From Candidatus Magasanikbacteria bacterium RIFCSPHIGHO2_01_FULL_41_23 (lineage in GTDB: Bacteria > Patescibacteriota > Patescibacteriia > Magasanikbacterales > UBA922), in assembly GCA_001782805.1 (NCBI GenBank), contig MFPT01000019.1:1801-65800 (forward strand): 64,000 bases of DNA, read 5' to 3'. Below are positions 8,242-50,533 of this stretch, piece by piece. The position numbers and the translations under genes are program-made. Position 1 is the first letter of the stretch. The number at the start of each line of letters is the position of its first letter. The notes below the pieces were generated by a model that saw only the letters and a program-made list of their open reading frames with translations, was not told the origin of the DNA and did not search any database.

Positions 8242-11133
8242 ATGAATAAATATAATCCCCAAGAAATTGAATTAAAATGGCAAAAATTTTGGGAAGAAAA
8301 TAAAACGTTTGCGGTTACTGAAGATTCGACCAAAGAAAAATTTTACGGCCTGATTGAGTTTCCGTATCCGAGTGGCGCGGGTTTGCATGTGGGGCATCCG
8401 CGGTCGTACACGGCCATGGACGTGATTACGCGGCAAAAACGCATGGAAGGCAAAAATGTTTTGTTCCCGATTGGGTTTGATTCATTTGGTTTGCCGACGG
8501 AAAATTTTGCCATTAAAACCGGTCGGCCGCCTGCGGAAATTACGGCTGAAAATATTACCACGTTTACGCGTCAGCTCAAGTCGCTGGGTTTTGGATTTGA
8601 CTGGAATCGCGCGGTGACCACGAGCGAGCCGGAATATTACAAATGGACGCAGTGGATTTTTTTGCAATTGTATAAACATGGTTTGGCGTACAAAGCGAAC
8701 CAGCCAATCAATTGGTGTCCGAAAGATAAAATTGGTTTGGCGAATGAAGAAGTAGTGACCCATTCGACAAGCTCAGGGCAAGTCAGTTGTTGCGAACGGT
8801 GCGGCAGCACAGTAGAAAAACGGAACAAAGAACAATGGATGCTGGCGATTACCAAATACGCGGACAAATTGTTGGAAGGCCTGAATGAAGTGGATTATAT
8901 TTCGCGCGCCAAAGTGCAACAAGAAAATTGGATTGGAAAAAGTGAGGGCGCGGAAATTAATTTTGCCTTGAATGTTCCGAGACAAGATTTAGGGAAACAT
9001 AGTGTAACGGTTTTTACCACGCGACCCGATACTATTTTTGGCGCGTCGTTTTTGGCAATTTCAGCCGAGCTGGCGCAAAAATGGATAGATGTAGGCTGGC
9101 AGGCGAGTGAGGAGGTAAAAAAATACATTGTGGAAACTTTGCAGGGTCGGACGACCGCGGTGGCGCGCGAAGATATTGAGAAAACCGGTGTTGACTCGGG
9201 AATTATCGCAATCAATCCGGTCAATAATGAATCAATTCCTGTTTGGATTGTGAATTATGTGTTGGGTGATGTGGGCACTGGTGCAATTATGGCTGTGCCG
9301 GCGCACGATGAACGAGACTTTGAGTTTGCACAGAAATATAATTTGCCAACAAAAGAAGTGGTAATCAAACAATTAGGCGAGAGAGTGGATGGTAGTGAAG
9401 TTAGAAATACTGCGCGGGGGATTTGTGTTCGAGATGGGAAATTATTAATAACCCGCAATAAGAAAATGGGTGAATATCTTTTGGTAGGTGGAGGAATTGA
9501 TAATAAAGAAAGTCCAACCGGTGCATTATTGAGGGAAATAAAAGAAGAAACTGGTTATTGTAATATAAAAATTTCTTCATATCTTGGCACTGTTGAACAT
9601 AATTATTTTCATACCCAACATAAAAAAAATTTACATGCGTTGGTGGCGGGCTTCGTATTTGAATTAGAAAATGAAGAAACAGTACCCCGCGTTGAAAATG
9701 AAATTCAAAAAGCTAATATTCTGTGGTTGCCGGTTGCCGAAGCGATTGAAAAATTTGAAAATAGTCCGTCATTTTGTCGGGAAGTTGAATTTATTGAACG
9801 CTATTTGCAAAAAAAAGGCCTGCCGTTTACTGAAAATGGTGTGGCGTATAATTCTGATTTCTTAAATGAACTGCCGACTCCCGAAGCCAAAGAAAAAATG
9901 ATTCAATGGCTTGAAGAAAAAAGAGTCGGCAAACGTAAAAAAAATTACAAACTCCGCGACTGGGTTTTTTCGCGCCAGCGATATTGGGGCGAACCGATTC
10001 CATTGGTTTTTTGTGAGAATTGTAAAGGTTGGATCCCGCTTCCTGAAGATCAGCTTCCTTTAAAGCTACCACACGTTGAAAAATATTTGCCGACGGACAC
10101 GGGCGAATCACCGCTCGCGCCAATGACGGATTGGGTAAATACGACTTGTCCGCAGTGTGGCGGTCCAGCGCGGCGGGAAACTGATACAATGCCGAATTGG
10201 GCTGGATCAAGTTGGTATTGGTTACGCTATTGTGATCCGCATAATGTTGAGCAATTGGCGTCAAAAGAAAAGTTAAATTATTGGCAACCAGTGGATTGGT
10301 ACAACGGCGGCATGGAGCACACGGTTTTGCATTTGTTGTATTCGCGTTTTTGGAATCAATTTTTGTACGACATTGGCGTGGTGCCCACGCGCGAGCCGTA
10401 CAAAAAACGGACGAGTCACGGTATGATTTTGGCGAGTGATGGTCAAAAAATGAGTAAAAGTTTGGGCAATGTGGTGAATCCAGATGAAATGGTCGAGCAG
10501 TTCGGTGCCGACGCCCTGCGCGTATACATTTTATTTATGGGGCCGTTTGACCAGGCCGTGGCGTGGGATACAAATGGACTTGTTGGTGTGCGGAGATTTT
10601 TGGAAAGAGTGTGGAATTTGCAGGAAAAAATTTACGATAACATCCCAGCAATTGTCGGGCAAATAACAGATAACAAAATTCAGACTGTTTTGCATCAAAC
10701 CATTAAGAAGATTACTGAGGATATTGCCGCGATGCGATTCAATACTGCAATTGCGAAATTGATGGAGTTGAGTAATGAAATGGGTACGCGGGAAAAAATT
10801 GCGCGCGAAGATTATCATATATTTATAAAATTACTCGCTCCATTCGCGCCGCATATTACCGAGGAATTGTGGAATCTATTTGGCACCGGCGATTCAGTCG
10901 CATATGCGCCGTGGCCACAATATGATTCTGAATTAATCATAGAAGCCGAAATAATCATTGTAGTACAAGTCAACGGTAAAGTCCGCGATCAATTGACTGT
11001 CTCGCCGGAAATTAGTGAAGAAGAAATAAAACAAATGGCGTTGTCGTCCGAGAAAGTGATGAAGTGGTTAGAAGGGAAAGAGCCGAAGAAGGTGATTTAT
11101 GTTAAGGGAAAGTTGGTGAGTGTGGTGGTATAA
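8242..11133 (+). CDS. leuS: Leucyl-tRNA synthetase with embedded Nudix hydrolase domain and a short in-frame repeat insertion
   Basis: HVGHPRSY (HIGH), Zn motif CCERCGS, editing-domain motifs TTRPDTIFGA and AHDERDFEFAQKY, KMSKS. A perfect Nudix box GGGIDNKESPTGALLREIKEETGY lies at 9487-9558, inside a ~150-aa insert. The THSTSSGQVS insert is encoded by the repeat core at 8757-8782. Confidence 0.9.
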   Translation: MNKYNPQEIELKWQKFWEENKTFAVTEDSTKEKFYGLIEFPYPSGAGLHVGHPRSYTAMDVITRQKRMEGKNVLFPIGFDSFGLPTENFAIKTGRPPAEITAENITTFTRQLKSLGFGFDWNRAVTTSEPEYYKWTQWIFLQLYKHGLAYKANQPINWCPKDKIGLANEEVVTHSTSSGQVSCCERCGSTVEKRNKEQWMLAITKYADKLLEGLNEVDYISRAKVQQENWIGKSEGAEINFALNVPRQDLGKHSVTVFTTRPDTIFGASFLAISAELAQKWIDVGWQASEEVKKYIVETLQGRTTAVAREDIEKTGVDSGIIAINPVNNESIPVWIVNYVLGDVGTGAIMAVPAHDERDFEFAQKYNLPTKEVVIKQLGERVDGSEVRNTARGICVRDGKLLITRNKKMGEYLLVGGGIDNKESPTGALLREIKEETGYCNIKISSYLGTVEHNYFHTQHKKNLHALVAGFVFELENEETVPRVENEIQKANILWLPVAEAIEKFENSPSFCREVEFIERYLQKKGLPFTENGVAYNSDFLNELPTPEAKEKMIQWLEEKRVGKRKKNYKLRDWVFSRQRYWGEPIPLVFCENCKGWIPLPEDQLPLKLPHVEKYLPTDTGESPLAPMTDWVNTTCPQCGGPARRETDTMPNWAGSSWYWLRYCDPHNVEQLASKEKLNYWQPVDWYNGGMEHTVLHLLYSRFWNQFLYDIGVVPTREPYKKRTSHGMILASDGQKMSKSLGNVVNPDEMVEQFGADALRVYILFMGPFDQAVAWDTNGLVGVRRFLERVWNLQEKIYDNIPAIVGQITDNKIQTVLHQTIKKITEDIAAMRFNTAIAKLMELSNEMGTREKIAREDYHIFIKLLAPFAPHITEELWNLFGTGDSVAYAPWPQYDSELIIEAEIIIVVQVNGKVRDQLTVSPEISEEEIKQMALSSEKVMKWLEGKEPKKVIYVKGKLVSVVV

Positions 11134-11389: not shown

Positions 11390-11890
11390 ATGTTTCAAGA
11401 AATAGAAAGATTTATAAATATAGTTGGCATACCATCATTATTGCTGGGTTTTTTGTACATCGGCAAGAGATTACAATTGTTGGATGATATTAATAACACT
11501 GTCAAAAGCCTAAAGCATAATATAAAGGTCATTTGCGACCATTTGATTAGCAAGTTTGATGGTTTTGATCATACGTTGCTCGTTAACTACAGCCCACTTA
11601 AGCTTAAGCCAGAGGCGGTCAAACTTTTGGAAATTATTGGGTTTATTGAAATGTTTAAACAACATAAACAAGACTTTTTTGATTTAATAAATAACGAGCA
11701 ACCAAAAACCAAGTTTGACGTTGAATTGCAGAGTATTAAAGCAGTCCTAATATTATTTGAGAAGGATTATTTTACTGAGGTTAAAAATTACTTGTACAAC
11801 AATCCTAATGTTGAGTACAAAAAATTTGCGCAAGTCTTGGGTATTTATGTGCGGGACAAGTATTTTAATGAACATAAGATGATTTTATGA
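11390..11890 (+). CDS. Hypothetical protein (AT-rich, no recognisable domain)
   Basis: 166-aa ORF only. Lower GC than its neighbours. Confidence 0.35.
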   Translation: MFQEIERFINIVGIPSLLLGFLYIGKRLQLLDDINNTVKSLKHNIKVICDHLISKFDGFDHTLLVNYSPLKLKPEAVKLLEIIGFIEMFKQHKQDFFDLINNEQPKTKFDVELQSIKAVLILFEKDYFTEVKNYLYNNPNVEYKKFAQVLGIYVRDKYFNEHKMIL

Positions 11891-49076: not shown

Positions 49077-49496
49077 ATGAAAACGGTGATGGTATTCGGA
49101 ACATTCGATATTTTGCACGTTGGCCACTTGGATTTTTTTAAGCAAGCGAGAAAATTGGGTGATTATTTGTTGGTTGTAGTCGCGCGTGATGTGAATGTAA
49201 AAAAAATTAAACAAAATGAAGCGATTAATAATGAAAAAGAACGGTTGGAATTACTCCAACATATTGATTTGATTGACAAAGCGATCTGGGGCGATACGCG
49301 CGATGTGTATAAAGTCATCCGTACATACAAGCCAGACGTTATCGCGCTTGGTTATGACCAAAAAGAATTTACGGATACATTAAAAGACAAAATGAAGGAA
49401 TTTAAATTATCTACGAATGTTGTGCGTCTCAAACCATACCACGCCGAAAATAAAAAAAGCGGCAAAATAAAATCCATTCTTCTCAAAAGTTTATGA
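49077..49496 (+). CDS. Cytidylyltransferase-fold nucleotidyltransferase, RibL/TagD-like (probable FMN adenylyltransferase)
   Basis: GTFDILHVGHLDFF (HxGH). Collinear with archaeal-type RibL. Confidence 0.6.
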   Translation: MKTVMVFGTFDILHVGHLDFFKQARKLGDYLLVVVARDVNVKKIKQNEAINNEKERLELLQHIDLIDKAIWGDTRDVYKVIRTYKPDVIALGYDQKEFTDTLKDKMKEFKLSTNVVRLKPYHAENKKSGKIKSILLKSL

Positions 49497-50533
49497 TGCG
49501 TGAGCTCCTCATTGCGACAACTAACCAGCACAAAATCACCGAGATTAAGGCTTTTTTGGAGCACATGCCATTTACGTTTTTATTGTTATCAGATCTTAAA
49601 GAATCTATCCCAGCCCCTGAAGAAATAGGGGAAACTATTTCCGAGAACGCCGTGCTTAAAGCCCGTTATTACGCGCAAAAGTCCGGTATGTTAACTTTAG
49701 CTGACGATACCGGACTTTTTATTGATGCTCTTGAGGGCTGGCCAGGCGTAATGAGCGCGCGCGTGGGATCAACGAGTACAGAGCAAACAGATTTAACATT
49801 GCAGAAAATGGAGGAAGTTCCGGAAGACAAACGCACGGCTCACTTTGAATCCGTAACCGCTTTGGTTGATCCGGAATCAAATGTAGAATTTATTGCTCAT
49901 GGTGTAACGCAGGGAAAAATTTTGACCAAGCCGGTTGAGCATCCAAATCCGTTTGGTTTTGATCCGATTTTTTATCTTCCCGAAATGGGGAAATCGTACG
50001 CTGAATTAACGACCGTAGAAAAAAATGCGGTGTCGCATCGTGGCAAAGCGTTAATTCGTATCAAGCATCATTTGCAAAATACCTACGTGGCCAAACACAT
50101 TGTCGTGCCATTTGCCTTAATTATCAAAGACGGCCGAGTATTAATGAATTTGCGTAATGATCCGCACCGACCGGAATATCACAACAAATGGGAATTTCCC
50201 GGTGGAAAAGTTGAATTTGGCGAGACTATGCATGGCAACTTGATTCGTGAAGTGAGAGAAGAAGTGGGATATGATGTGCAAATTGTCAAAATGCTTCAGG
50301 ATATTGCTGTGGAAAGTCAAATGCAAAAAACCTACGCGTATCAGGTTTTTCTCGTTCCCTATGTTTGTAAAATTATTGGCGGCGATGGAAAGTTTTCCGA
50401 CGGCGAAGTTTTGGAAACGCGTTGGTTTGATGTCGATGACGTTTTGAATTATGAACTGATCGGGGAGAACGAAAGGATGTATCGGGCGTTTTTGCCGGAA
50501 TTAAAAGAAACCATAAAAAATTATCAATTATAA
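49493..50533 (+). CDS. Fusion of RdgB/HAM1 non-canonical purine NTP pyrophosphatase with C-terminal Nudix hydrolase
   Basis: N-terminal HAM1 motifs (TTNQHKITE, LADDTGL, GFDPIF). C-terminal Nudix box GKVEFGETMHGNLIREVREEVGY. Confidence 0.8.
   Translation: MMRELLIATTNQHKITEIKAFLEHMPFTFLLLSDLKESIPAPEEIGETISENAVLKARYYAQKSGMLTLADDTGLFIDALEGWPGVMSARVGSTSTEQTDLTLQKMEEVPEDKRTAHFESVTALVDPESNVEFIAHGVTQGKILTKPVEHPNPFGFDPIFYLPEMGKSYAELTTVEKNAVSHRGKALIRIKHHLQNTYVAKHIVVPFALIIKDGRVLMNLRNDPHRPEYHNKWEFPGGKVEFGETMHGNLIREVREEVGYDVQIVKMLQDIAVESQMQKTYAYQVFLVPYVCKIIGGDGKFSDGEVLETRWFDVDDVLNYELIGENERMYRAFLPELKETIKNYQL

Follow-up and report, generated by a model that had tools for sequence, protein, structure and literature searches.

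A 64,000-nucleotide stretch of contig MFPT01000019.1 from Candidatus Magasanikbacteria bacterium RIFCSPHIGHO2_01_FULL_41_23 (the window in what follows) contains a leuS gene encoding a bacterial-type leucyl-tRNA synthetase (LeuRS) in which a Nudix hydrolase domain is nested, in frame, inside the CP1 editing domain. Related LeuRS hold Nudix, an unrelated domain or no extra domain at this place. On balance, we lean towards the view that the Nudix domain is an autonomous, active pyrophosphohydrolase lodged in a permissive loop of CP1, that LeuRS provides its co-expression, and that cassettes of this kind move between leuS genes by way of the conserved sequences that flank them.

The LeuRS Core and Its Nudix Insert

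The leuS open reading frame (ORF) runs through its full 963 amino acids (aa) without a stop or frameshift, and Pfam recognises in the product tRNA-synt_1, the LeuRS editing domain of CP1 (PF13603, aa 228-397, E 2.3e-52), Anticodon_1 and, between these, NUDIX. The NCBIfam model of bacterial LeuRS (TIGR00396, leuS_bact) matches with 982.3 bits (cut-off 548.4) in two stretches that flank the insert. The motifs of the synthetic and editing sites (Table 1) were compared in an alignment of 53 LeuS relatives with and without insert. In the threonine-rich motif TTRPDT, whose role in LeuRS editing is established, three residues (R261, D263 and T264) are invariant and the other three (T259, T260 and P262) at least 90% conserved; AHDERD pairs with AHDQRD in the alignment to Thermus LeuRS; and the region FTENGVAYNSDF, with which LeuRS sequence resumes, has an invariant G533 and an S538 that is at least 90% conserved. 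AlphaFold2 models the full-length protein with a mean predicted local distance difference test score (pLDDT) of 88.1 and a predicted template modelling score (pTM) of 0.77 (pLDDT 82-93 for the Nudix region, 79-94 for the two linkers). The best Foldseek match of this model is the E. coli LeuRS-tRNA complex 4aq7 (TMt 0.83, E 7e-79), and the other top matches are solved bacterial LeuRS structures. By these motifs and models the LeuRS is complete, with both the synthetic site (HVGH, KMSKS) and the CP1 editing site (TTRPDT, AHDERD) intact.

Measured against a profile of 22 insert-free relatives, the window LeuS has an extra segment of about 146-147 aa, which stands in place of residues 368-376 of Thermus thermophilus LeuRS, a CP1 loop of 9 residues (~17 in Neisseria LeuRS). 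NUDIX (PF00293, cut-off 21.1 bits) matches at aa 389-504 with an E-value of 8.6e-17, scoring 61.8 bits in context and 65.1 bits on the isolated insert. The Nudix box fits G-x5-E-x7-R-E-U-x-E-E-x-G-U exactly, with E423, R431, E432, E435 and E436 as catalytic/metal-binding residues. Across 41 aligned inserts with a mean column identity of 34%, six residues (G417, R431, E432, E435, E436 and G438) are invariant and a seventh, E423, is at least 90% conserved; a strict Nudix box occurs in 88 of the 156 LeuS-like proteins collected; and the inserts of every pair of species representatives keep 40-56% amino-acid identity where synonymous sites are saturated. Because the catalytic residues are invariant, the strict box is frequent and identity persists despite synonymous saturation, the pattern indicates purifying selection on an enzyme and not a decaying passenger. 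These sequence data indicate a complete Nudix domain that is under selection for its catalytic residues and is predicted to be catalytically competent.

A sequence-only reading of the window had placed a Nudix domain in frame past the AHDERD...KEVVI part of CP1, at 9361-9860, and the profile score and the exact box bear this out; its span brackets the insert (9376-9816) together with short LeuRS flanks, and the reading frame is uninterrupted, as it had stated. The Nudix box that it gave as 9487-9558 is real but starts at 9490, the claimed span being one G too long. A profile search, a structural model and a survey of related LeuS, the checks that it named, agree with it: PF00293 scores the insert above threshold, the insert folds as Nudix and the full model as LeuRS (pLDDT 89.8 and TMt 0.83 to 4aq7, respectively), and Nudix is present in 61 of the 120 closest LeuS clusters.

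An intein or other self-splicing insertion was considered and rejected: no Hint domain was found, NUDIX is the sole Pfam match in the insert, no Rfam intron was detected in the window, and the insert models as a plain Nudix domain. A search for flanking repeats, target-site duplications and terminal repeats around the insert gave only short, chance-level matches and thus no sign of a classical mobile element.

Distribution of Inserts among LeuRS Relatives

We searched 5.8 billion proteins with the whole LeuS and counted insert contents in the 120 closest LeuS cluster representatives. Some insert is present in 92 of them and none in 28; the contents are Nudix only (36 clusters), Nudix with an alpha/beta-hydrolase (19), HAD with an alpha/beta-hydrolase (11), HAD only (8), an alpha/beta-hydrolase only (7), Nudix with HAD (3), and other combinations, which include a methyltransferase and two domains without a Pfam match (8). 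Profile mapping combined with Pfam scans defined the insertion sites. Site 1, the one used in the window, lies past the 'K.VV' strand of CP1 and holds Nudix (~145 aa), HAD (~200 aa), a methyltransferase (184 aa), a Nudix+HAD tandem (355 aa) or an unknown domain (~100 aa). Site 2 is in the CxxC module after RYWGEPIP (profile positions 443-455) and takes an alpha/beta 'Ser_hydrolase' domain of ~180 aa, and site 3, further downstream, takes HAD or an unknown domain of ~176 aa. In more distant LeuS a site at the start of CP1 carries one or two extra Nudix domains, giving up to three Nudix per LeuRS (P0125, P0129 and P0135). The other cassettes keep their catalytic motifs as well, HAD motif I in 23/23 and GxSxG in 34/43.

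When 1.84 billion representatives were scanned by HMMER with the insert alone, most of its nearest relatives were themselves embedded in LeuS. A scan restricted to one genome per species recovered 80 loci, of which ~17 had a site-1 insert bearing a strict Nudix box; these were labelled Magasanik-, Falkow-, Zambryski-, Paceibacterota, Saccharibacteria or 'Patescibacteria group', or were TPA metagenome-assembled genomes (MAGs), for which we suspect that labels such as 'uncultured Gammaproteobacteria' are wrong. Almost none of the loci with ordinary non-Patescibacterial labels in the same scan had an insert. The exception is a locus (L005, 3001-5808) from a MAG labelled 'uncultured Bacilli bacterium MGBC129510', whose LeuS core is nearest to Firmicutes LeuS (63%) and whose Nudix domain sits in the same CP1 loop and is of the same subtype as in the Patescibacterial proteins P0017 and P0092 (44% identity between the inserts, 45-54% between the cores). 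A Nudix domain in a Firmicutes-type core implies that the insert either is not strictly confined to Patescibacteria or has been transferred.

Several further observations concern these loops. The two Pfam-less domains embedded in LeuRS are found in P0006 (aa ~369-475 and ~631-825) and likewise in P0013, P0037, P0073, P0048 and P0028; one (~100 aa) occupies the Nudix site, and the other (~176-180 aa), near profile position 527, has a faint match to NTP_transf_5 (E 0.006). Two short Patescibacterial LeuS of 770-774 aa (P0098 and P0114) have neither an insert nor the CP1-completing segment 'NSDFLNGL...EAKEK..LEEK' of other bacteria, and being shortened at the spot of the insert they suggest that the region tolerates deletion as well as insertion. 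In a Candidatus Gracilibacteria locus (L076, 2881-6066) the LeuS frame is broken under code 11 at profile positions 370-450, probably because UGA is read as Gly (code 25); the gap spans sites 1-2 and may hide an insert. Three Saccharibacteria-type loci (L057, L063 and L065) show, ~5.7-7.1 kb in, a same-strand series of an insert-free leuS, nusB, a free-standing Nudix gene (165-168 aa), rnc and rpsP. We set aside a functional linkage between this free-standing Nudix and the neighbouring leuS, as only three loci show it and these Nudix are not specially similar to the LeuS inserts. A match of the insert-alone scan, P0149 (1318 aa), has a Peptidase_M17 (leucyl aminopeptidase) domain in three stretches, two GNAT and two Nudix domains, and such multi-domain nesting thus seems to be present in another housekeeping enzyme.

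Probable Exchange of Inserts between leuS Genes

The closest relative of the window protein by its LeuRS core, P0006 (17% core distance, 83% identity), has no Nudix at site 1 but a Pfam-less domain, and a second such domain occupies its site 3; its gene order matches that of the window (IF-2 ... ELFV dehydrogenase / sigma factor / inositol monophosphatase / leuS). The next core relatives have no insert. By a neighbour-joining tree and a Mantel test, both crude instruments, core and Nudix distances are weakly correlated (r 0.22, reached in 0 of 2000 permutations), the mean distance being 0.34 between cores and 0.70 between inserts; core and Nudix share their nearest neighbour in 16 of 63 cases. 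The GC content at third codon positions (GC3) is 0.238 in the insert (9376..9816), 0.463 in both LeuS flanks and 0.379 on average over the genes of the contig, and a value as low as that of the insert was reached in only 0.3% of equal-sized contig windows. Two other genes of the contig (51827..52594 and 60134..61249) have similarly AT-rich third positions.

Fold and Substrate Clues

Modelled alone, with 40 homologous inserts, the insert adopts a Nudix fold with a pTM of 0.82. Foldseek and a profile search of PDB sequences agree, the Aquifex diadenosine tetraphosphate (Ap4A) hydrolase being second in both. The top structural match is PDB 2AZW, a MutT/nudix family protein of Enterococcus faecalis with unassigned function; the neighbours include hydrolases of dinucleoside polyphosphates (ApnA) and polyphosphates (3i7u, Rv2985, Ndx1, DIPP and CT771), and NrtR and AraR, which are non-enzymatic Nudix domains, are also among the matches. 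Sequence identity to any solved Nudix is ~20%. The best NCBIfam match of the insert is NF003786 (bifunctional NMN adenylyltransferase/Nudix hydrolase), with an E-value of 9e-8 and a score that falls far short of the cut-off of that family.

The X-loop is the specificity region of Nudix enzymes (Srouji et al., PMC5389931), and in ApnA hydrolases it contains a conserved Tyr about 17 residues past the Nudix box (Dunn et al. 1999, summarised in PMC5389931). An aromatic residue stands at +17 in 37 of the 41 inserts (21 Tyr, 16 Phe), the window protein having Phe there and Tyr at +16. The Pro that marks the X-loop of ADP-ribose pyrophosphatases is not conserved at +13 to +18 of the inserts (Pro occurs at +19 in 7 of 41), and the NADH pyrophosphatase motif SQPWPFPxS is absent from the insert. 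The CoA-pyrophosphatase (NuCoA) motif upstream of the box was rejected for misfitting spacing, judged by eye against the PROSITE pattern. Taken as a lead only, the X-loop leans toward a dinucleoside-polyphosphate or nucleoside triphosphate (NTP)-type substrate; a dinucleoside polyphosphate, an NTP or some other polyphosphate can be predicted as the most likely class, ahead of ADP-ribose, NADH and CoA.

Table 1. Features of the leuS gene and of the RdgB-Nudix gene, with positions in the window and in the LeuS protein.
Feature	Position	Strand	Remarks
leuS, bacterial-type LeuRS with nested Nudix domain	8242..11133	+	one 963-aa ORF
HIGH signature HVGH, synthetic site	8386..8397, aa 49-52	+	H49, G51 and H52 invariant in 53-sequence alignment
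Threonine-rich editing motif TTRPDT of CP1	9016..9033, aa 259-264	+	motif located; conservation from 53-sequence alignment (see text)
Editing-site motif AHDERD	9301..9318, aa 354-359	+	D356, R358 and D359 invariant in 53-sequence alignment; ~20 residues upstream of insert
Inserted Nudix hydrolase domain in CP1 surface loop	9376..9816, aa 379-525	+	extra relative to profile of insert-free relatives
Nudix box GGIDNKESPTGALLREIKEETGY	9490..9558, aa 417-439	+	exact fit to Nudix consensus
X-loop region EHNYFH	9595..9612, aa 452-457	+	Y455 at +16, F456 at +17 after Nudix box
LeuRS sequence resuming after insert, FTENGVAYNSDF, completes CP1	9826..9861, aa 529-540	+	aligned to Thermus 377-386
CENC...CPQC zinc-type module after RYWGEPIP	10012..10158	+	insertion site 2 of relatives; empty in window LeuS
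KMSKS loop, synthetic site	10447..10461, aa 736-740	+	K736, M737, S738 and K739 invariant in 53-sequence alignment
RdgB/Ham1 (dITP/XTP pyrophosphatase family) with C-terminal Nudix	49493..50533	+	Ham1 aa 5-191, 3e-53; NUDIX aa 209-332, 1e-15
Nudix box GKVEFGETMHGNLIREVREEVG of RdgB-Nudix protein	50204-50269	+	

Interpretation and Alternatives

Sequence and models show the leuS product as a complete bacterial LeuRS with a complete Nudix domain of ~147 aa joined by short linkers into a CP1 surface loop, and hence as a bifunctional polypeptide. The Nudix module, as far as its sequence suggests, would act as an autonomous Mg2+-dependent hydrolase of a nucleoside-polyphosphate-type substrate, and its carriage on LeuRS would secure constitutive expression in fixed 1:1 proportion to an enzyme essential to translation. 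We read it as one of several interchangeable enzyme cassettes, which comprise Nudix, HAD phosphatase, alpha/beta serine hydrolase, methyltransferase and domains without a Pfam match; they sit at three to four permissive hot spots of LeuRS and are found in Patescibacteria as well as in at least one MAG with a Bacilli label. leuS genes would acquire, lose and trade these cassettes, and we infer that recombination through the highly conserved LeuRS flanks is the probable means. Because unrelated enzymes share the loop and the syntenic ortholog P0006 differs there, the site is best read as an insertion hot spot of autonomous modules; the same two observations argue against a Nudix activity tailored to the proofreading of LeuRS and fit a house-cleaning role, which the sequence-only reading had named as one option beside hydrolysis of Ap4A or of mis-activated aminoacyl-adenylates.

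Several points weigh against an autonomous, exchangeable enzyme. The short and confidently modelled linkers also suit a fixed, functionally coupled arrangement, and every cassette that could be identified belongs to the small-molecule hydrolases or transferases, possibly a sign of a common theme. The closest relatives of this Nudix are almost all LeuS-embedded, from which it follows that the lineage has long been inside LeuRS and may be specialised to it. On the side of exchange, the tree and the Mantel test count for less for being crude, and GC3 is lower in the insert than in the core in 16 of 21 other loci (mean difference 0.064), so that codon usage relaxed in inserts generally would account for part of the low value in the window, which does not prove a recent transfer. 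Moreover, Nudix substrates cannot be read from sequence.

An extension of the autonomous-enzyme reading, which we put forward tentatively as a possibility, is that LeuRS of Patescibacteria, and of at least one Bacilli-labelled lineage, serves as an exchangeable 'domain-cassette platform', in which small metabolic or house-cleaning enzymes are stored, expressed and horizontally swapped in frame at three or four fixed loops, with the conserved flanks as recombination landing pads. In a variant of this, the cassettes would jointly form a LeuRS-anchored unit for the sanitation of nucleotides and metabolites.

Functional coupling would mean that the Nudix domain clears a by-product of LeuRS on site, either Ap4A or diadenosine triphosphate (Ap3A) formed from enzyme-bound Leu-AMP and ATP, or released non-cognate adenylates, so that LeuRS cleans up after itself in organisms that may lack Ap4A hydrolases of the ApaH or YqeK type. 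Aminoacyl-tRNA synthetases (aaRS) are established producers of Ap4A, several ApnA/polyphosphate hydrolases are among the structural neighbours of the insert, the inserts conserve an aromatic where the X-loop of ApnA hydrolases has its marker residue, the CP1 tether is short and confidently modelled by AlphaFold2, and the closest relatives of this Nudix lineage occur almost only inside LeuS. However, equally close LeuRS have HAD, a methyltransferase or an unknown domain at the same loop and an insert is missing altogether from 28 of the 120 closest LeuS, the window protein has F and not Y at +17, the top structural match 2AZW has no assigned function, and acyl-adenylates are atypical substrates of Nudix enzymes. 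We regard coupling, with Ap4A or Ap3A foremost among its substrates, as the leading alternative, though clearly less likely than autonomy. It is unlikely that the domain is instead a regulatory sensor that binds a nucleotide metabolite and allosterically tunes the movement of CP1 between aminoacylation and editing, hydrolysis being secondary: CP1, in which the insert sits, is established to rotate in the LeuRS cycle, the connection looks rigid in the AlphaFold2 model, and the non-enzymatic NrtR and AraR are among the structural matches, but the catalytic residues of the Nudix box are kept across diverged inserts, as expected of an enzyme and not of a binding-only domain, and unrelated enzymes at the same site speak against a dedicated allosteric role.

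We give still less weight, and very little, to an immunity function, in which the embedded hydrolases would destroy, at the target itself, LeuRS inhibitors that mimic leucyl-adenylate (agrocin-84/TM84-like or aminoacyl-sulfamoyl-adenosine-like). This is suggested by analogy to IleRS with an N-acetyltransferase domain (NCBIfam NF040702) and by the diversity of detoxifying-type enzymes (hydrolases, a methyltransferase) in one antibiotic target, yet the neighbourhood of leuS in the window showed neither toxin nor biosynthetic genes, and phosphoramidate and sulfamoyl linkages are not obvious Nudix targets. That an assembly chimera or a sequencing error fused separate genes is hardly conceivable. 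The source is a MAG, in which chimeras can arise in principle, and nothing else was found in favour of an artefact. Against it, the two LeuRS halves share one frame and, as CP1 splits the Rossmann fold, neither can be dispensed with; a protein identical to the window LeuS is found on two contigs (P0004, 'Candidatus Magasanikbacteria bacterium RIFCSPHIGHO2_12_FULL_41_16', named 'leucine--tRNA ligase'); independent assemblies supply over 60 diverged homologs that share this architecture, with the insert at the site used in the window; and the domain boundaries fall exactly at a structural loop.

Relation to Known Systems and Significance

The aaRS are among the most conserved enzymes, and although aaRS with appended domains are well known, the added domains are usually RNA-binding or editing modules or, in eukaryotes, signalling modules. 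Like canonical bacterial LeuRS (E. coli 4AQ7, T. thermophilus 1H3N/2BYT, N. gonorrhoeae 7NU8), the window LeuS has the HIGH, KMSKS and CP1 editing motifs and the anticodon-binding and C-terminal domains; unlike them, it has the short CP1 loop replaced by a 147-aa domain that is predicted to be catalytic, and none of the solved LeuRS structures has such an insert. Compared with free-standing Nudix proteins (2AZW, then the Ap4A/Ap6A/DIPP group 3I7U, 1VC8, 7AUI and 9CXX), the LeuS Nudix has both its termini spliced into CP1. It resembles the case of IleRS with N-acetyltransferase (ileS_w_GNAT) in placing a second catalytic domain on a class I aaRS polypeptide, and the INS domain of ProRS is a cis editing domain added to an aaRS; in contrast to both, the addition in LeuS is a Nudix nested within the editing domain and drawn from an interchangeable set found at several sites. 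NadM-Nudix (NF003786), double-Nudix and RdgB-Nudix proteins likewise join a Nudix to a nucleotide-handling enzyme, but they are end-to-end fusions, whereas the LeuS Nudix is an internal insertion. Full-text literature searches, which reached only a minority of subscription journals, turned up no account of LeuRS with an internal Nudix or other enzyme domain, of an aaRS-Nudix fusion, or of such an interchangeable set in any aaRS, and the database names of these proteins are generic or misleading ('leucine--tRNA ligase', 'alpha/beta fold hydrolase').

A predicted hydrolase thus lies inside the proofreading domain of an essential synthetase, and the loops concerned are occupied by several unrelated enzymes in turn within a large bacterial radiation that is mostly uncultivated and probably symbiotic. 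The Nudix domain of the window LeuS is a single example of a widespread system of insertions that uses several sites of an essential gene and draws on several enzymes. Should the modules be autonomous, minimal genomes would have a new route to keep and exchange accessory enzymes, and the loops would be naturally validated permissive sites in LeuRS for engineering fusions. If LeuRS does act as a platform for cassettes, this would be a previously unrecognised form of gene packaging and movement in streamlined genomes, and if the Nudix domain acts on by-products of LeuRS (Ap4A, adenylates), it would represent a new built-in quality or alarmone control in translation. Because annotation says 'leucine--tRNA ligase' or, wrongly, 'alpha/beta fold hydrolase', metabolic reconstructions would hide this extra enzymatic capacity.

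Other Features of the Window

The second Nudix that the sequence-only reading had seen fused to RdgB at 49493-50533 was recovered by Pfam as a Ham1/RdgB domain followed by NUDIX (Table 1). A recent duplication of this RdgB-fused Nudix as the origin of the LeuS Nudix was rejected, the two sharing 26% identity over 65 aa. No Rfam family, not even tRNA, reached the gathering score in the whole 64 kb. A 166-aa ORF immediately downstream of leuS (11390..11890, +) and a 539-aa ORF (27271..28890, +) have no Pfam match. From about 850 to 57300, nearly all genes of the window lie on the + strand.

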